This document shows, piece after piece, positions 7,390 through 56,305 of a stretch of 64,000 nucleotides of DNA. The DNA comes from Escherichia phage RB69. The stretch lies in the sequence record NC_004928.1; one strand, given 5' to 3'. A model generated the notes under the pieces. It was given only the letters and a program-made list of their open reading frames with translations, searched no databases and was not told where the DNA came from. The translations under genes were made by a program, and so were the position numbers. Each line of letters opens with the position of its first letter. Positions within the stretch are counted from its first letter, which is position 1.

Positions 7390-8388
7390 TTATGATACTA
7401 ATTCAATCCATGCAGGACGCAGAACATCTTGCACCATTCGGACTAATTCTTTCTTAACAAGATTCGGATTATCAGATGTTGTTAATACAATACCTTCACG
7501 AGAAGTTTCTTCCAGAATATCTTGAACAGTCAATCCCATCACTTTGCCAAAATCTTTTGGCGTTACAGTCCCAATCTTAGAAATAACATTATTAACACGA
7601 TTTAATGTAACATAACAAGCTAGAACATCAAGCAAGTTTTTGTCAATTTCGGTTAATGGAACCTGAGTTTTAATAGGCTTATCAGACTTTTTCTTTTCAC
7701 TGAATTTAGAGTTCTTGCACTTAATCGCTACACGAGTACCGTTTGGCAGCCATTTAGGGAAACAAGGCTTCAGAACATAACCTTCTGCAGTATTATCACC
7801 AATAACATTAGCATCAAATACACAATTATTTGCTTCTACAAGGTCTTCTGACGCAGTAGCATTATAAGCGGCTAAAACGGAATCAAGGTCATTTGGAATC
7901 ATGATAAGAGAATCAAATGTTCCACGACCAAGCATTGGTGCCATTTTAAAACCGAATTCATTACAGAAATCTTGCATTTCGTAATCGGTCAAATACGTAT
8001 TATCACCACTTTCTGTATTGATAAGGATATCGAACACATAAAAATCTTTTTCACCGTAGTCAACACCTTTCTGGATTCCACCACCAGCGAATTCACCGAA
8101 TACTTGATATGATACGGCTCGAGCTGTGTACATGAATTTCTGAACGGTTTTAATAGCTTTATCATACTTCTTGAGTACGATTTCATAACCATAAAAATCT
8201 TCTGCTGGAAGAATAGGGCCTGTGCGCTTGGCGCATGTGACGTTGTCACGTTCAATTATTAACGAGAAGTTGGTCCCATGGATTTTCTCACGTGCTACCC
8301 AAACACCAGTAGTCAAACCATTAGTGTAGAGTTTTTCAATAAACTTAGAGTTGTAGTGGTTTTCAAGACTGCTGTATTTCTTAAACAT
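7390..8388 (-). CDS. rnlB: RNA ligase 2
   Basis: 332 aa; N-terminus [16 protein letters not shown] and KIHGTN ligase motif I as in T4 Rnl2. Confidence 0.93.
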
Positions 8389-45792: not shown

Positions 45793-48700
45793 ATGGTTGA
45801 CATCAAACGTAAGTTCAGGGCCGAAGATGGTCTTGACGCAGGCGGTGATAAGATAGTTAACGTTGCGCTTGCTGACCGCACAGTTGGCACCGATGGCGTG
45901 AACGTTGACTTTTTGGTGCAAGAAAACACCGTACAGAATTATGACGAGACGCGCGCGTATACAAAAGATTTTATTGTTCTTTATGATAATCGTTTTTATC
46001 AAGCTTTAAGCGATATTCCAGCTCCGGCAGGCCCTTTCTCTTTGGCTAAATGGAAGGCAACTCGTACAGATGCAGAATGGATTACAGTTCAAGGCGGAGA
46101 TTTCCAATTATCAGTAGGTAACTCTATTGCGGTTGATACTTCAGCTGGCATTGATATTAATTTCACTTTGCCTCAAAATCCTTTAGATGGCGATACAGTT
46201 ATTTTGTCTGATATTGGCGGTAGAGTAGGCTATGTAAAAGTTCAAATTACTGCAGAGGCTCAAAGTATTGTAAACTTTAGAGGACAACAGGTTCGTTCAG
46301 TTTTAATGACGCACCCAAAATCTAAAATAGTATTCATTTTTAGCAACCGCCTATGGCAAATGTATGTTTCTGATTATGAACGTAATGCAGTCACAGTAAC
46401 TCCTGCTAAGCCATATCAGGCGCAACCTAACGATTTTATCATTCGACGTTTTACATCAGCCGCTCCTATTAATATTACATTGCCTCGCAATGCTAATAAT
46501 GGCGATATTATTAATTTAGTTGATTTAGACAAATTAAACCCGTTATATCACACAATTGTCAAAACTTACGATGATACAACTTCTATACGAGAAGCCGGTG
46601 TTCATGTAGCAGAAGGACGTAATACTGCAGAAGCGTTCTTTGTTTATGATTCTGCTAATAGCTTATGGCGTGTTTGGGAAGGTGACCAGAAATCTCGTTT
46701 ACGTATAGTTCGTAATGATACTGATTTACGCCCTAATGAAGAAGTTCTTGTTTTTGGAACTAATAATGATACAATCTCGACGGTAAATCTTACTTTGCCT
46801 ACAGATATTTTGTCTGGTGATACTGTTAAAATATCGTTGAATTATATGCGTAAAGGGCAAACTGTAAAAATTAAAGCTGCTGAAGGCGATACAATTGCTA
46901 GCAGTATTTCTTTATTACAGTTCCCAAAACGTTCAGAGTATCCACCTGATGCACAATGGGTTTCTGTTAGTGAGCTGGAATTTAATGGCGATACTTCGTA
47001 TGTCCCTGTACTTGAGTTGGCTTATATAGAAGATTATTCATCTGAAACAAAATATTGGGTAGTTCAACAAAACACTGTAACCGTCGAACGAGTCGATGCA
47101 TCGAGCAATACAACTCGAGCTCGTTTAGGTGTTATTGCTCTTGCTTCTCAAGCACAAGCAAATGTTGATTTAGAAAATGCTCCTGGTAAAGAACTGGCTA
47201 TTACTCCGGAAACATTAGCAAATCGTACAGCAACTGAAACTCGTCGCGGTATTGCTCGTATTGCAACAACTGCACAAGTTAACCAGAATACCGATTTTGC
47301 ATTCCAGGACGATTTGATTATTTCTCCTAAGAAATTGAACGAACGTACAGCAACTGAAACCCGTAGAGGTGTTGCTGAAGTTGCAACTCAGGCTGAAACT
47401 AATGCTGGAACAGATGATACCACTATTATTACTCCTAAGAAATTGGATGCCCGTCAAGGTTCTGAAGTTTTATCTGGTATTGTAAAATACACATCTACGA
47501 CTGGTACTACAGCTGCTACTGTTCGTGGTAATGCTGGGACTAACGTTTATAACAAAGCCGTAGATAATTTAACTATTTCTCCAAAGGCTCTTGACCAGTA
47601 TAAAGCTACCCATACTCAACAGGGCGCAGTAATTCTTGCTATTGAAAGTGAAGTTATCGCTGGCGAATCACAAGCCGGTTGGGCTAATGCTGTAGTGACC
47701 CCTGAAACTCTGCATAAGAAAACTTCTACTGATGGACGTATTGGTTTAATTGAAATTGCTACGCAAGCAGAAACTAACACTGGAACTGATTATACTAGAG
47801 CAGTAACGCCTAAGACGTTAAATGATAGGAAAGCTACGGAAGGATTATCCGGCATAGCCGAAATTGCTACGCAAGTTGAATTTGATACTGGAACTGACGA
47901 TACTCGTATCTCGTCTCCACTGAAAATTAAAACTCATTTTGATTCTTCTGACCGTACCAGTGTTAATTCTGATTCCGGACTTATTGAAGAAGGAACCTTG
48001 TGGAACCATTATACTCTTGATATTTCTAAAGCAAATGAAACACAACGCGGTACACTTCGCGTAGCGACCCAGGCAGAATCTAATGCAGGAACTTTAGATG
48101 ATGTTCTTATTACTCCTAAAAAGCTTTTAGGGACTAAGTCCACTGAAACGTCTGAAGGCGTGATTAAGGTTGCTACTCAGGCTGAAACTGTAACAGGAAC
48201 TTCTGCTAATACTGCTGTATCACCTAAGAATTTAAAATGGATTGTTCAATCAGAACCATCATGGACTGCTACTACGGCAATTCGTGGATTCGTTAAAACT
48301 TCATCTGGTTCTATTACATTTGTCGGTGACGATACTCAAGGTAATACCCAGGATTTGAATCTTTATGAGAAAAATAGTTATGCTATTTCTCCATATGAAT
48401 TAAACCGTGTACTTGCTAACTACTTACCGTTGAAAGCTAAAGCAGCTGATAGTAATTTGTTAGATGGTCTAGATTCTCTTCAGTTCATCCGTAGAGACAT
48501 CGACCAGACGGTTAATGGTTCTTTAAGTCTTACTAAACAGACCAACCTGAGTGCTCCTTTAGTATCTACAAGCACCGCTTCTTTTGGTTCCGAAGCATCT
48601 GTTACTCGTAGATTAACTCTTAATGACTCTAGCGGTTCCGAAATAGTTTTCACTAAAGGAACCCAATCTCTTAGTAATAAAGAGAATTTCGTTGTTAGAG

Positions 48701-49626
48701 CATGGGGTAATAGCGCTACAGCTGGTGACCGTGATACAGTATTTGAAGCGGGTGACGAAACCGGATACCATTTCTATTCTCAGCGCGCTGCTGATAATAA
48801 AGTATCATTTAATATTAATGGAACACTTTATTCAACAGGTATTGTTTCTACAAATGGATTAAATGTTACAGGTGTTTCTACCTTTACCGGGCCTATTAGT
48901 GCTACAGGCGAAATTGTTTCTAGTTCTCCTATTGCATTCAGAGCTATTAACGGTAACTATGGTGTTATGCTTTATAACGCTGGTAACAGTTCTTATATTG
49001 CATTAACTAACTCAGGTGACCAGACCGGGACGTTTAATAACTTACGCCCGATCACGATTAACAATGCCACAGGATTAGTTCGTCTTGACAACGGTGTTCA
49101 AATCACAAGTGGTGCAACAATAACTACCGGTGGGTTAACTGTAAATAACAGGATTATTTCTAACGGCGTTAAAACTGCCACGGTTTATACCGATAAACCA
49201 ACAGCTTCTACTGTAGGTTTTTGGTCTATTGACATTAACGATTCTGCTGTATATAGCCAATTCCCTGGATACTGGACGCGTGATAACAAAGGTAACCGTG
49301 ACCAAGAAATTAAATATCCTGGTACTTTGACTCAATTCGGCAATAGCTTAGATTCGCTTTATCAGGATTGGATTTGTTATCCTACAGGTGCAAATGGTGG
49401 TAGTATTCGATATACTCGTACCTGGCAGAAAAATAAAGACGCTTGGACCTCATTTGCAATGGTATTTGATAGTGGCAACCCACCTTCACCTAGCGATGTC
49501 GGTGCTATCCCATCCGATAATGCTGTGATTGGAAACCTTACTGTTCGAGACTTCTTACAATTAGGAAATGTGAGAATTGTTCCAGACCCGGTTAACAAAA
49601 CCGTTAAATTTATATGGGTTGAATAA
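45793..49626 (+). CDS. 34: long tail fibre proximal subunit gp34
   Basis: 1277 aa; repeated ATETRRG...ATQAETNxGTDDT...ITPKKL motifs; TATAAATA at 45751-45758. Confidence 0.95.
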   Translation: MVDIKRKFRAEDGLDAGGDKIVNVALADRTVGTDGVNVDFLVQENTVQNYDETRAYTKDFIVLYDNRFYQALSDIPAPAGPFSLAKWKATRTDAEWITVQGGDFQLSVGNSIAVDTSAGIDINFTLPQNPLDGDTVILSDIGGRVGYVKVQITAEAQSIVNFRGQQVRSVLMTHPKSKIVFIFSNRLWQMYVSDYERNAVTVTPAKPYQAQPNDFIIRRFTSAAPINITLPRNANNGDIINLVDLDKLNPLYHTIVKTYDDTTSIREAGVHVAEGRNTAEAFFVYDSANSLWRVWEGDQKSRLRIVRNDTDLRPNEEVLVFGTNNDTISTVNLTLPTDILSGDTVKISLNYMRKGQTVKIKAAEGDTIASSISLLQFPKRSEYPPDAQWVSVSELEFNGDTSYVPVLELAYIEDYSSETKYWVVQQNTVTVERVDASSNTTRARLGVIALASQAQANVDLENAPGKELAITPETLANRTATETRRGIARIATTAQVNQNTDFAFQDDLIISPKKLNERTATETRRGVAEVATQAETNAGTDDTTIITPKKLDARQGSEVLSGIVKYTSTTGTTAATVRGNAGTNVYNKAVDNLTISPKALDQYKATHTQQGAVILAIESEVIAGESQAGWANAVVTPETLHKKTSTDGRIGLIEIATQAETNTGTDYTRAVTPKTLNDRKATEGLSGIAEIATQVEFDTGTDDTRISSPLKIKTHFDSSDRTSVNSDSGLIEEGTLWNHYTLDISKANETQRGTLRVATQAESNAGTLDDVLITPKKLLGTKSTETSEGVIKVATQAETVTGTSANTAVSPKNLKWIVQSEPSWTATTAIRGFVKTSSGSITFVGDDTQGNTQDLNLYEKNSYAISPYELNRVLANYLPLKAKAADSNLLDGLDSLQFIRRDIDQTVNGSLSLTKQTNLSAPLVSTSTASFGSEASVTRRLTLNDSSGSEIVFTKGTQSLSNKENFVVRAWGNSATAGDRDTVFEAGDETGYHFYSQRAADNKVSFNINGTLYSTGIVSTNGLNVTGVSTFTGPISATGEIVSSSPIAFRAINGNYGVMLYNAGNSSYIALTNSGDQTGTFNNLRPITINNATGLVRLDNGVQITSGATITTGGLTVNNRIISNGVKTATVYTDKPTASTVGFWSIDINDSAVYSQFPGYWTRDNKGNRDQEIKYPGTLTQFGNSLDSLYQDWICYPTGANGGSIRYTRTWQKNKDAWTSFAMVFDSGNPPSPSDVGAIPSDNAVIGNLTVRDFLQLGNVRIVPDPVNKTVKFIWVE

Positions 49627-49634
49627 GAGGTTAT

Positions 49635-50759
49635 ATGGAAAAATTTATGGCAAGGTTTGGACAGGGATACGTCCAAACGCCGTTTTTATCGGAAAGCAAT
49701 TCAGTTAGATTTAAGCTAAGTATAGCGGGTTCATGCCCGCTTTCAACAACTAATCCGTATATTTTGTTCCAAAACGAGCCTTTAGGGTTGCAGTCTTTTG
49801 GTATTGGACTAAATGTTAGGGTGATAAATCCGGAAAATGGAACTATAGTTGATAGTAAATTATACAATTTTGCGCCTACAAATAATGCAACTTCAGCTGC
49901 ATTTATTTCGTTTGTTAATACATACGCAGATAATTTCATTTTCGCATTTATTTCTAATAACAAATTTAATTTGCCGCCAGAAATAATTGAATGGTTTAAA
50001 GCTGCTGGGAGTTCAGTTATACCGTCAATTGAAGTTGCTAGTCTTGTTGATATTTCATATTCAGCGTTTTATGTTTCAGGTAAAAATACTATTGCATTAG
50101 AACACATAAAATACAGTAATAAGAAAACAATTTCTGATTACGCAACTCCATTAGATATTGTATATGACTCTATTGCTGATATAGGTGCTACCGGCTATCC
50201 TAGACGTACATATGAAGCTCTAGAAACGTTTTTATCTCCTGTTGGAGGAACTAACAATGAAATAAAAAGGGTGCCTACATCATCCCTTGTTACTCCTATC
50301 GCAAACTATGGATTAAAGCCTACAGATTTTCTTTATTTGAAATTTCAATTAATGGCTGATGAAGAATTATTAGAGGAAGGAACCACAAGACTTTCAATTC
50401 GTTTCTTTAAGTCTCCATCTAGCTCTCCTATATCATCTAAAGATATAAACTTTGATGGAACTGCCGGGGAGTGGAAGCTATATGAAGAATACGTTGAAAT
50501 ACCAGCTGAAGCTGATGGCTTTACAGTATATTGTTACCGTACGGCCTCAGTCGGTCAAGGTGGACTAAGAAATGTTATTTTCACTGAAGTATCATGTAAC
50601 GGAAGTATAGCAAAACCCGCCGAGTTTGGTATAAACGGTATTCGTGTTAATTACATTGATGAATCATTAACCGGTAATGATATAATGGACTTGCCTACTC
50701 AGTTATCTAACGACACAGGTAAGGTATTTGGGCAGGAATTTAAAGAGTACACAGAATAA
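49635..50759 (+). CDS. 35: long tail fibre hinge protein gp35
   Basis: 374 aa, MEKFMARFGQGYVQTP as recalled for T4 gp35. Confidence 0.92.
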   Translation: MEKFMARFGQGYVQTPFLSESNSVRFKLSIAGSCPLSTTNPYILFQNEPLGLQSFGIGLNVRVINPENGTIVDSKLYNFAPTNNATSAAFISFVNTYADNFIFAFISNNKFNLPPEIIEWFKAAGSSVIPSIEVASLVDISYSAFYVSGKNTIALEHIKYSNKKTISDYATPLDIVYDSIADIGATGYPRRTYEALETFLSPVGGTNNEIKRVPTSSLVTPIANYGLKPTDFLYLKFQLMADEELLEEGTTRLSIRFFKSPSSSPISSKDINFDGTAGEWKLYEEYVEIPAEADGFTVYCYRTASVGQGGLRNVIFTEVSCNGSIAKPAEFGINGIRVNYIDESLTGNDIMDLPTQLSNDTGKVFGQEFKEYTE

Positions 50760-50784: not shown

Positions 50785-50792
50785 TATAAATA
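50785..50792 (+). promoter_or_regulatory. late promoter TATAAATA upstream of gene 36
   Basis: Exact TATAAATA. Confidence 0.6.
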
Positions 50793-50818: not shown

Positions 50819-51475
50819 ATGGCCGATTTAAAAGCCGGAAGTACAGTTGGTGGTTCCGTCATATGGCATCAAGGCAATTTTCCTTTAATGCCAGCTGGCG
50901 ACGACATCCTATATAAAACATTTAAATTATACACTGAATATAACAAGCCAAAAGCGGCTGATAACGATTTCGTATCTAAAGCAAATGGTGGGACATATCT
51001 CAAAAAGGTAATCTTTAACGAAGGTGTTGCAGTCAAAACAGCAGATGACCAAACGAATGGTATTTTTTCTGGTGGTGGTGACGCCGCGACATTCGACCAA
51101 ACAAACATGGATATTGTTTCGTGGTATGGTATTGGGTTTAAATCATCTCAAGGTACAGGTGAAAGAACTGTTGTAATTGATACTCGCACCGGTAATATAA
51201 GTTCTAAAGGCGTTATTGAAGCATCTCAATTCAGAGCCACAACGTTAGCACCTTTAAATAATTACGACCTTACTCGCAAAGATTATGTTGATAGTCAAAT
51301 AAATACAGTTAATGCTAATGCAAACAGTCGTGTACTCCGTTCAGGAGATACGATGACCGGCGCGCTAACCGCCCCAAACTTTTTCTCACAGAATCCTGCA
51401 TCTCAACCCTCGCATGTTCCACGATTTGATCAAATTGTTATTAAGGATTCTGTTCAAGATTTCGGCTATTATTAA
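50819..51475 (+). CDS. 36: long tail fibre distal connector gp36
   Basis: 218 aa; TATAAATA at 50785-50792. Confidence 0.92.
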   Translation: MADLKAGSTVGGSVIWHQGNFPLMPAGDDILYKTFKLYTEYNKPKAADNDFVSKANGGTYLKKVIFNEGVAVKTADDQTNGIFSGGGDAATFDQTNMDIVSWYGIGFKSSQGTGERTVVIDTRTGNISSKGVIEASQFRATTLAPLNNYDLTRKDYVDSQINTVNANANSRVLRSGDTMTGALTAPNFFSQNPASQPSHVPRFDQIVIKDSVQDFGYY

Positions 51476-51483
51476 GAGGACTT

Positions 51484-54400
51484 ATGGCTACTTTAAAACA
51501 AATACAATTTAAAAGAAGCAAAACTGCAGGAGCACGTCCTGCCGCTTCAGTATTAGCCGAAGGTGAATTGGCTATAAACTTAAAAGACCGTGTACTTTTT
51601 ACTAAAGATGACCAAGGAAATATTATTGATCTGGGTTTTGCTAAAGGTGGTAGTATTGACGGGAATGTTATTCATACTGGCAATTATAACCAAACTGGCG
51701 ATTATACTTTAAATGGCACCTTCACTCAGACAGGTAATTTTAATTTAACCGGTATTGCTCGAGTAACTCGTGATATTATTGCCGCTGGGCAGATTATGAC
51801 TGAAGGCGGTGAACTTATTACAAAAAGTTCAGGTACAGCACATGTTCGTTTTCATGATTCGGCTGATCGTGAACGTGGCATTATTTATGCACCGGCTAAT
51901 GATGGATTAACTACGCAAGTAGTTAATATCCGCGTTAAAGACTACGCCGCTGGTGATGAAAGCACCTATGCATTTTCGGGCAGTGGACTATTTACTTCAC
52001 CTGAAGTGTCAGCATGGAAATCTATGTCAACTCCTCAGATTTTGACAAATAGAGTTATTACTAATAATAAATCTACGAGCGATTATGACATTTATTCTAT
52101 GGCAGACAACGTTCCATTGTCTGAAAGCACTACTGCTATTAATCATCTCCGTGTTATGCGCAATGCTGTAGGCGCTGGTGTATTCCATGAAGTTAAAGAT
52201 AATGATGGAATAACTTGGTATACTGGAGATGGCTTAGACACTTATCTTTGGTCGTTTACCTGGTCCGGTGGATTGAAAGCAGGCCATTCTATTTCTGTTG
52301 GTACTCCTGGTGGCAATAAAGGATACTCTGAATTAGGGACTGCTTCAATTTCTCTTGGCGATAATGATACAGGCTTAAAATGGCATCAAGATGGATATTA
52401 TTTCAGCGTTAATAATGGAATAAAAACGTTTTTATTTAGTCCCAACGAAACAACTAGCCTAAGAAAATTTGTAGCTGGATATTCTACCACCGGAACCGAT
52501 TTAACTACTCCTCCAACTGAAAACTATGCTTTGGCCACTGTTGTTACTTACCATGATAATAACGCGTTTGGAGACGGTCAGACTCTTTTAGGATATTATC
52601 AAGGCGGTAACTATCATCATTATTTTCGCGGTAAGGGTACTACAAACATTAATACTCACGGCGGTTTGTTAGTTACTCCAGGTAATATTGATGTTATTGG
52701 CGGTTCTGTTAATATCGATGGTAGAAATAATTCTTCTACACTGATGTTTAGAGGTAACACGACCGGAGCTAGTTCAGTTGATAATATGACAATTTCCGTT
52801 TGGGGCAATACGTTTACTAATCCTAATGTAGGTAATCGTAAAAACGTCATGGAAATTTCTGATGCAACTAGCTGGATGAGCTATATTCAAAGACTTACTA
52901 CTGGTGAAGTAGAAATGAACGTTAATGGTTCATTTGAATCATCTGGTGTTACTGCTGGAGATAGGGGAGTTCACACAACAGGCGAAATTTCATCTGGGGC
53001 TGTGAATGCGCTTCGTATTTGGAATAATGATTATGGAGCCATTTTTAGACGTTCAGAAGGCAGTCTTCATATTATTCCAACTGCTTATGGTGAAGGTAAA
53101 CATGGTGATATCGGTCCACTTCGCCCGTTTAGTATGGCTTTAGATACCGGTAAAGTTACTATTCCAGATTTACAATCAAGTTACAATACGTTCGCTGCGA
53201 ACGGCTATATTAAATTTGTTGGTCATGGCGCTGGCGCTGGTGGTTATGATATTCAATATGTTCAAGCGGCTCCTATTTTCCAGGAAATCGATGATGATGC
53301 TGTAAGTAAATATTATCCTATTGTTAAGCAGAAGTTTTTAAACGGTAAAGCAGTTTGGTCTTTAGGTACTGAAATTAATTCGGGTACATTTGTTTTACAC
53401 CATATCAAAGAAGATGGATCACAAGGCCATACATCTCGTTTTAATCAAGACGGCACAGTTAATTTCCCTGATAATGTTCAGGTTGGTGGTGGTGAAGCTA
53501 CTATTGCTCGCAACGGTAACATCTGGTCTGATATCTGGAAAACGTTTACTTCTGCCGGTGATGTAACTAATATCCATGACGCTATTGCTACTCGTGTTGC
53601 CAAAGAAGGTGATACGATGACAGGCCGCTTAACTCTTAATGCAAACTCGGATGTTATTGTTATTAACAGTGCTGCAACCGAATCTGGCTATTTGAAAGGA
53701 CAAAAAGCCGGCGTTGATAACTGGTATGTAGGTAATGGTGGGGCTGATAATGCCATATCGTTTTATAGTTTCCGAAATAATTCAGGCATAAATGTTAATA
53801 ATGGTGGCGATATTGCTTTAAACCCAGAAGGGTCCGCCACTTTTAATTTTAATAAGGACCGACTTTATATAAATGGTTCGGTTTGGACCTCACACCAGGC
53901 CGGCGATTGGGGAAATCAATGGCGCCAGGAAGCTCCTGTATTTGTGGATTTTGGCTACGTCGGTAATGATAGTTATTATCCAATTATCAAAGGAAAATCT
54001 GGTATTACTAACGAAGGATATTTTTCAGGCGTTGATTTTGGTATGCGACGCATTCCTAATAACTGGGCACAAGGTATTATTCGTGTTGGTAACCAGGAAA
54101 ATGCTAGCGATCCGCAAGCTATCTTCGAATTCCACCATAATGGAAACATGTACGTTCCTGACATGGTTAAAGCTGGAGTAAGATTATCAGCTGGTGGAGG
54201 TGACCCTGCATGGACAGGCGCATGTGTTGTTATTGGTGATAATGACACTGGGTTAGTTCATGGCGGTGACGGTCGTATTAACATGGTTGCAAATGGAGTG
54301 CATATTGCTTCGTGGTCAGCTGCTTATCAGATCCATGAAGGTCTTTGGGATTCAACTGGTGCTTTATGGACTGAAACAGGAAGAGCTATTATTTCTTATG

Positions 54401-54795
54401 GGCATTTAGTCCAACAAAGTGATGCCTATTCCACATATGTCCGCGATGTTTATGTCCGCTCTGATATTCGTGTTAAAAAGAACCTCGTTAAATTTGAAAA
54501 TGCTTCTGAGAAGCTTTCTAAAATTAACGGTTACACTTATATGCAGAAGCGAGGCCTAGATGAAGAAGGCAATCAGAAATGGGAACCTAACGCCGGTTTA
54601 ATTGCTCAAGAAGTTCAAGCTATTTTACCAGAATTAGTTGAAGGCGACCCGGATGGTGAAGCTTTACTTCGTTTGAACTATAACGGTGTAATTGGTTTAA
54701 ATACAGCTGCAATCAATGAGCATACTGCAGAAATTGCAGAACTTAAGTCAGAGATTGAAGAGCTTAAAAAATTAGTTAAATCATTGTTAAAATAA
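51484..54795 (+). CDS. 37: long tail fibre distal subunit gp37 with C-terminal intramolecular-chaperone-like domain
   Basis: 1103 aa; C-terminal SDIRVKKNL...coiled coil resembles S74-type chaperone domain. Confidence 0.93.
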
Positions 54796-54800
54796 TAAGA

Positions 54801-54814
54801 GGGGCTTCGGCCCC
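54801..54814 (+). terminator. intercistronic C(UUCG)G hairpin between 37 and 38 (attenuator or stabiliser)
   Basis: ggggc-ttcg-gcccc immediately followed by the gp38 RBS, no T-run. Confidence 0.45.
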
Positions 54815-54826
54815 TTGGAGGTGTAT

Positions 54827-55600
54827 ATGGCAGTTGAAGGACCGTGGGTAGGATGGTCTGCAAGGGTACAGACTGGAGATCCTTGGATGGGTGGTGCCGC
54901 ACAGAGATTGAGAATGGGAATTCCGTTTTGGATGAGTAATATGATAGGTCGATCTGTTGAAGTAATTCACACGCTTGGAGCAGACCATAACTTCAATGGT
55001 CAATGGTTCCGAGATAGATGTTTTGAGGCAGGTAGTGCACCTATAGTGTTTAATATCACCGGAAATTTGGTATCATATAGTAAAGATGTTCCATTATTCT
55101 TTATGTATGGCGATACACCAAATGAATATGTTACTTTGAATATTCATGGTGGAGTTCATATGTGGGGACGAGGTGGTAACGGTACTGTAAACGGAAACCC
55201 AGGCACAAATGGCGGCGATGTAATCCAAAATGATATCGGCGGAAGACTTCGTATTTGGAACTATGGCGTTATTGCATCAGGCGGCGGTGGTGGTGGTGCA
55301 GTGTCATTACAGAATAGCTGGGCGCCAAATGCTACAGCAGGCGGCGGTGGTGGTAGACCATTTGGCATCGGCGGAGGCGGCGTTAATTGGCCGGGTGGTA
55401 ATGCTAGTTATGACGCCCCGGGCGGTGCCGGTTACACTTCCCAATTCGGCGGAGGCAATGGCGGTGATGCTGGAGGTCGGGGCGGAGATGGATGGGGTAA
55501 TCACTTATCTAGATCTGGCGGTGGTGCTCCTGGCAGAGCAGTATTCGGAAGTTCACCGTCATGGGGTGCTACAGGCACAATCTACGGCTCCTGGATTTAA
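54827..55600 (+). CDS. 38: receptor-recognising tail fibre tip adhesin gp38 (T2/T6 type, glycine-rich motifs)
   Basis: Track ORF 54815 is TTG; ATG at 54827 (MAVEGPW) follows GGAGG; several poly-Gly motifs. Confidence 0.9.
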
Positions 55601-55626: not shown

Positions 55627-55645
55627 TTGATAAATGGGAGGTAAT

Positions 55646-56305
55646 ATGGCAGCACCAAAAGTATCATTTTCGCCTAGTGATATTTTATTTGGGTTGCTAG
55701 ACCGCATTTTCAAAGATAACGCCTCTGGAAATATTCTTATTTCAAGAGTTGCTGTTGTAGTTCTTTTGTTCCTAATGGCACTAATATGGTACAAAGGGAA
55801 TATTTTTATGGATTATTACGTGAGGTCGAAATATGATACTTACACAGAAGTAATTCAAAAAGAAAGAAATACACGATTTGAATCTGCGGCTTTAGAACAA
55901 CTACAAATAGTCCACGTCACATCAAGGGCGGATTTTAGTTCGGTGTATTCTTTCAGACCTAAAAATCTAAATTATTTCGTCGACCTTATTGCGTATGAAG
56001 GTAAGTTACCTAGCACAGTAACTGAAAAATCTATGGGAGGATTTCCTGTCGATAAAACGACAGCAGAATATTCGGTCCATTTAAGTGGACTTCACTTTAC
56101 TTCTAAAACAGATTTTGCTTTCTTACCTACCAAATCAAAAACTCCGGAACTGGCATATATGTATAGTTGTCCTTACTTCAATTTGGATAACATATATGCG
56201 GGAACTGTTTCTATGTATTGGTATAAGGGGTCGGATGTGTTAAATGAAGAACGCTTGGCTGCAATATGCAACCAAGCAGCAAGGATATTAGGGCGGGCTA
56301 AATAA
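55646..56305 (+). CDS. t: holin T
   Basis: Track ORF 55634; ATG at 55646 (MAAPKVSF) follows GGAGG; N-terminal TM helix; T4 T similarity. Confidence 0.93.
   Translation: MAAPKVSFSPSDILFGLLDRIFKDNASGNILISRVAVVVLLFLMALIWYKGNIFMDYYVRSKYDTYTEVIQKERNTRFESAALEQLQIVHVTSRADFSSVYSFRPKNLNYFVDLIAYEGKLPSTVTEKSMGGFPVDKTTAEYSVHLSGLHFTSKTDFAFLPTKSKTPELAYMYSCPYFNLDNIYAGTVSMYWYKGSDVLNEERLAAICNQAARILGRAK

Follow-up and report, generated by a model that had tools for sequence, protein, structure and literature searches.

The long tail fibre distal subunit of Escherichia phage RB69, gp37, ends in an intramolecular chaperone of the Peptidase_S74 type, as seen in its domain identity, its dyad residues and its fold. 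The domain makes up the last 111 of the 1103 residues of the precursor, at the extreme C-terminus, and is followed at once by the gene for gp38. Very probably, RB69 gp37 is a precursor whose S74 chaperone cleaves itself off, with gp38 docked on the tip that this exposes. The feature is an already known and widespread module, which has been described for T2, T6 and S16.

We analysed a window of 64,000 nucleotides from the RB69 genome (NC_004928.1), which represents the late-gene region of a Tequatrovirus, a T4-like coliphage. E. coli O157 typing phage 3 and phiC120 share 97.7% identity with the first 25 kb of this window, and 639 phage records match the g37-g38 stretch, the top match being vB_EcoM_PTE-Eco05 (93.7%). 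The genes run in the order g34 (45793-49626), g35, which encodes the hinge protein (49635-50759), g36 (50819-51475), g37 (51484-54795, + strand), g38 (54827-55600, + strand) and the holin gene t (55634-56305, + strand; Pfam Phage_holin_T, 298 bits), which ends the g34-g38-t block. Two minus-strand open reading frames (54678-54902 and 54776-55003) fall within strongly supported genes. The window contains 16 matches to the T4-type late promoter motif TATAAATA, an enrichment over the 7.4 expected, with + strand copies before g34 (45751), g36 (50785-50792) and t (55619). Because a motif scan of the window found no TATAAATA copy directly before g37 or g38, g36, g37 and g38 probably form a single late transcription unit. 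Residues 58-131 of gp35 match the Pfam family ILEI (PF15711; 30.2 bits, cut-off 27), an interleukin-like EMT inducer or FAM3-type domain; since gp35 of T4 (35.9 bits) and of T2 (36.7 bits) match as well, this is a general property of gp35.

The open reading frame of g37 closes with two stop codons in tandem (TAA TAA), and its product, with a computed mass of 119.1 kDa, matches the PHROG 1699 family, ‘long tail fiber protein distal subunit’, over residues 1-1102 (1346 bits). Within the shaft, a Gp34_trimer domain scores above threshold (31.9 bits) and a gp37_trimer match falls just short of it (20.2 bits versus 21.7); these internal matches, which concern residues 449-550 and 724-774, fit a shaft made up of repeated modules.

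The initial annotation had proposed that the tail of gp37 resembles an S74-type chaperone, and had named a Peptidase_S74 profile search as the way to check this. A search with PF13884, described in Pfam as ‘chaperone of endosialidase’, bore the proposal out: the whole protein scores 48.9 bits and the tail alone 54.6 bits (E 1.4e-14), far above chance and well over the curated gathering score of 22 bits, with the alignment spanning profile positions 1-57 of 58. The peptide singled out in that annotation does lie at the C-terminus of gp37, but its start and length had to be revised. A start at 54440 is out of frame and meets stop codons on translation, whereas the in-frame start, at SDIRVKK, is nucleotide 54460 (S993), which gives a C-terminal piece of 111 residues rather than 110.

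All the parts of this region lie on the + strand. The distal tip of mature gp37, as placed by alignment to 6F45_A, would span about residues 912-992 (54217-54459) and end in the beta-strand DVYVR. The predicted autocleavage site R992/S993 (54457-54462) is located by the S16, fPS and 3GUD alignments. The Peptidase_S74 core, residues 993-1052 (54460-54639), is delimited by PF13884 together with a 23-sequence alignment, and the long C-terminal alpha-helix of the chaperone, about residues 1066-1102 (54679-54789), by the AlphaFold model. The whole intramolecular chaperone domain, residues 993-1103 (54460-54792), has a mass of 12.4 kDa.

Catalytic dyad and predicted autocleavage site

Both residues of the Ser-Lys dyad are present in RB69 gp37, as S993 (codon 54460-54462) and K998 (codon 54475-54477), five residues apart. 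They align to A49 and K54 of the MyRF structure 7DC3 and to S1 and K6 of the released GA-1 domain 3GUD, the first residue of which is the aligned serine. Because alanine occupies the aligned serine position in 7DC3, we infer that A49 represents a serine-to-alanine substitution in a pre-cleavage MyRF crystal chain. The published dyads are S911/K916 in endoNF and S587/K592 in MyRF, and the same work describes the function of the dyad and the requirement of S74 cleavage for a trimer, the aid given to catalysis in endoNF by an upstream arginine, R897, and the role of helix alpha4, the equivalent C-terminal helix, in driving trimerisation in both MyRF and endoNF (PMC8326128).

Around the dyad, the gp37 sequence DVYVR/SDIRVKK (the slash marking the cut) is in register with the S16 cleavage site DLNVS/SDRRIKK. 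By the account given in PMC7917993, the last 113 residues of S16 gp37 are removed by autocleavage, exposing the surface onto which gp38 docks, and cleavage is predicted in the Tequatrovirus fPS phages at the nearly identical DVYIR/SDGRLKI (PMC7917993). A cut at the corresponding position in RB69 would be predicted to convert the 119.1 kDa precursor into a mature gp37 of 106.7 kDa and a fragment of 12.4 kDa. Across eight T-even-type gp37 tails from phages of six host genera (Escherichia, Salmonella, Proteus, Klebsiella, Serratia and Cronobacter), S-D-x-x-x-K is found in all, and each tail has a gene with a gp38-type N-terminus 29-37 nt downstream.

The suggestion in the initial annotation that RB69 follows T2-type processing gains from a comparison with T2 itself. 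The T2 gp37 (1341 aa) carries PF13884 at residues 1243-1300, with the motif RSDIRLK, and T2 gp38 has both adhesin domains. For T2 and T6, C-terminal cleavage of gp37 followed by capping with gp38 was reported by Drexler, Riede and Henning in 1986, as cited in PMC3157838; by analogy, cleavage would take place in RB69 too.

A domain of this kind might also stay in place uncleaved, as a cap or trimerisation tag, with gp38 bound elsewhere or transiently. Nothing specific speaks for this, apart from the residue that precedes the predicted cut, which is arginine in RB69 gp37 and serine in S16. We consider it very improbable, given that both dyad residues are intact at canonical spacing, that the near-identical fPS motif has been read as a cleavage site in other Tequatroviruses, that T2, with the same Pfam domain, is reported to be cleaved, and that gp38 keeps the attachment domain and the tryptophans seen in S16, where docking needs an exposed tip. 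Self-cleavage between R992 and S993 is accordingly the reading that we prefer.

The gp38 adhesin and the g37-g38 junction

As the initial annotation had it, a gp38 adhesin gene adjoins g37. Its ATG, at 54827, is separated from the g37 stop by 31 nt and is preceded by a GGAGG Shine-Dalgarno sequence (54817-54821). The product, of 257 aa and 26.2 kDa, matches GP38 (PF05268) with 278.4 bits and Gp38_N (PF21721) with 71.3 bits, and among solved structures it matches the adhesins of S16 (6F45_D, E 1.6e-47) and PP01 (9V85, E 4.7e-74), the latter an OmpC-binding gp38 closely related to that of RB69. Residues W7, W20 and W35 of RB69 gp38 align with W7, W20 and W36 of S16 gp38, and residues 111-257, the glycine-rich receptor-binding domain, contain 35% Gly. 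The protein is 99.6% identical to its counterpart in ECP52 and 97.3% identical to those of RB51 and RB68. On the other side of the junction, gp37 aligns from residue 912 on to 6F45_A, and its tip is homologous to the S16 gp37 tip that bears gp38. In S16, gp38 is described as docking onto the gp37 tip (PMC7917993, PMC6851490), with three tryptophans at the apices of its N-terminal helices plugging pockets of the gp37 trimer (PMC6851490). Judged by these matches, RB69 gp38 is a T2-type adhesin and not a T4-type assembly chaperone.

Several gp38 records, among them ON782582 (ECP52), EU863409 (JS10) and MK295203, carry the label ‘distal long tail fiber assembly catalyst’. The label was transferred from the unrelated T4 gp38, which the T4 RefSeq note acknowledges, and for T2-type phages it misleads.

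Were the label on such close homologues taken at face value, RB69 gp38 would act as a T4-type assembly chaperone outside the virion, and the gp37 tip would bind the receptor itself. This is extremely unlikely, since gp38 belongs to PF05268 and PF21721 and matches the S16 and PP01 adhesins, whereas T4 gp38 has neither adhesin domain and the C-terminus of T4 gp37 is different, being made of Collar and fibre-repeat domains; ‘catalyst’ is a name carried over from T4. We rejected it on the Pfam family assignment. In a control search of T4, no S74 domain was found in gp37, which has Collar and Phage_fiber instead, and no Pfam match was found for gp38. The C-terminus of T4 gp37 is the receptor-binding tip itself, and T4 gp38, a separate chaperone, is unrelated to the RB69 protein. 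A T4-type tip thus combines a gp37 with Collar and His-rich fibre-repeat domains with a non-adhesin gp38, and the RB69 pattern is the opposite. An adhesin gp38 of the T2 type remains our reading of the RB69 gene.

A GC-rich intercistronic RNA hairpin (54799-54816, + strand) abuts the g37 stop on one side and the g38 Shine-Dalgarno sequence on the other, and has a stem of 7 bp, a C(UUCG)G tetraloop and a calculated stability of -13 kcal/mol. The hairpin recurs, with compensatory changes in the stem, in T2 (L001, 9058-9075), AR1, JLBYU24, T4 (L009, about 7629-7648) and in Proteus, Klebsiella, Serratia and Cronobacter phages. Stable intercistronic hairpins have long been known in T4, and the g37 hairpin looks alike. 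At the junction no T-run follows the hairpin, and a role as terminator was rejected for this reason; a role as part of the chaperone and adhesin system was likewise discarded, as T4 has the hairpin with neither. Because T4 shares it and the T-run is missing, we class it as a general T-even intercistronic hairpin.

It has to be regarded as very unlikely that the chaperone tail, the hairpin and the gp38 attachment domain form a co-inherited ‘junction cassette’, and an equally slim chance attaches to the idea that, within such a cassette, the 3:1 ratio of gp37 to gp38, or the transfer of gp38 to the newly cut tip, is governed by the hairpin or by the chaperone trimer after its release. The T4 hairpin speaks against the cassette, as it is present despite the lack of a chaperone tail and an adhesin.

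Three phages show departures on the g38 side of the junction. In Klebsiella phage RCIP0032 (L005, 1820-2347), a short Gp38_N protein that lacks the glycine-rich GP38 domain follows an S74-ended gp37, and in Serratia phage X20 (L006, 1826-2341 and 2522-3028) there are two such proteins in tandem. PMC3157838 describes RB43-type alternative adhesins, and these Gp38_N-only proteins, of 168-175 aa, are probably of that kind. In Salmonella phage KM16 (L003, about 1050-1800), a record marked UNVERIFIED, the g38 frame is broken, apparently by frameshifts, and the gp37 chaperone tail is intact; the break is probably a sequencing error.

Comparison with AR1, one of the AR1/PP01/RB51-type O157 coliphages, separates the parts of the fibre by their conservation. 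The AR1 chaperone, at 98% identity to that of RB69, is the best-conserved segment, while the shaft is 50-89% identical (50% in residues 700-800), the gp38 attachment domain 80% and the receptor-loop region 53%. From these alignments, the fibre shaft and the gp38 loop region appear as a mosaic between the two phages. This pattern agrees with the report in PMC3157838 that subtypes of the gp37 tail and of the gp38 N-terminus occur as matched pairs, and with the published finding that PP01 gp38 is non-functional on T2 gp37.

Fold and relatives of the chaperone domain

The closest solved relative of the gp37 tail is the S16 gp37 construct 6F45_A, which aligns to the very end of the protein (E 8e-33). 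PF13884 was present in all 28 homologues found in a large protein database, a set of proteins shorter than 240 aa, mostly truncated or prophage tail-fibre ends, and not a survey of full-length fibres. An alignment of 23 homologues shows little or no variation in S-D-x-R-x-K, GLIAQ, PELV and LRLNYNG. Every homologue that spans the site retains S-D-x-R-x-K, and both GLIAQ and PELV, which lie within the S74 core of gp37, form invariant columns. By tblastn, the chaperone module was found in 1,242 phage records, with an identity of at least 95% in 177. Only the C-terminal piece is common to PHROG tail-fibre families of many lengths, as would be expected of a mobile module.

A single-sequence search of solved structures found S16, MyRF and one tail fibre, and did not reach GA-1. 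A profile built from the 23 homologues matched MyRF 7DC3 (E 1.3e-7) and the tail fibre 8JOV (E 1.5e-4), and gave a weak match to GA-1 3GUD (E 0.14), with the serine and the lysine in register in all three alignments; neither this profile nor the single sequence reached the endoNF and T5 structures. The links to endoNF, T5 and GA-1 therefore rest on the fold comparison and on Pfam.

In an AlphaFold single-chain (monomer) model, the gp37 tail was predicted with a pLDDT of 82.5, and a long helix (model residues 99-135) with a pLDDT of 91-97. The tail has the characteristic fold, in which a small beta/alpha core is followed by a long C-terminal helix. The predicted fold matched four solved intramolecular-chaperone structures, eukaryotic MyRF (7DC3; Foldseek probability 1.00), endoNF (3GW6; 0.93), the T5 L-shaped tail fibre (4UW8) and GA-1 gp12 (3GUD), and nothing else comparable, even though sequence identity to the four is only 13-26%. 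That the S74 resemblance arose by chance or from the composition of a coiled-coil-like C-terminal helix, to which weak Pfam matches of DivIC and FlaC to tail residues 84-111 (E about 0.1) might point, has a probability close to nil and is refuted by the Pfam match to the non-helical core (residues 993-1052), by the invariance of GLIAQ and PELV across the aligned homologues and by fold matches that span 87-110 residues of the four chaperone structures.

Proposed maturation of the fibre tip

With the tail assigned to the S74 chaperones, a course of maturation can be proposed by analogy. The C-terminal helices of three gp37 chains would form a coiled coil that nucleates trimerisation, and this coiled coil would set the register of the upstream trimeric, beta-helical fibre tip and nucleate its folding. 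In a correctly folded trimer, S993, activated by K998, would cut the R992-S993 bond, releasing the 12.4 kDa domain and leaving a mature gp37 of 106.7 kDa that ends in the DVYVR strand. The tip so exposed would provide docking for a single gp38 molecule, whose W7, W20 and W35 would enter the pockets of the gp37 trimer, so that its glycine-rich loops would be presented to an outer-membrane protein. For RB69, a cleavage that depends on the trimer, the departure of the cut domain and the attachment of gp38 are in this way extrapolated from T2, S16, endoNF and MyRF.

The nearest model is the gp37-gp38 tip of S16 (PDB 6F45), for which PMC7917993 and PMC6851490 cite Dunne et al. (2018). Its architecture is the same: a trimeric gp37 tip, a C-terminal chaperone and a gp38 gene. 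The two gp37 tails can be aligned over their full length, which brings the cleavage motifs into register; conserved too are the attachment domain of gp38 and its three tryptophans. RB69 differs from S16 in 11 residues inserted into the tip on the N-terminal side of the cut, in the length of the chaperone (111 residues versus 113) and in the receptor loops of gp38. T2 shares the gene order, the intercistronic hairpin and a PF05268 gp38 downstream, but represents a different subtype, with 42% identity in the chaperone core and 42.5% in the gp38 attachment domain. T4 is like RB69 in the positions of g37 and g38 and in having a hairpin after the g37 stop. In endoNF, T5 and GA-1 the function resides in the mature tip, whereas in RB69 removal of the chaperone would make room for a separate adhesin.

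No new biological question is raised by the module, and its value lies mainly in annotation and in phage engineering. The mature end of gp37 can be set at the predicted R992, and the gp38 records called ‘assembly catalyst’ are really those of adhesins. The chaperone tail and the gp38 N-terminus form a conserved junction, which any exchange of host-range modules must leave intact.
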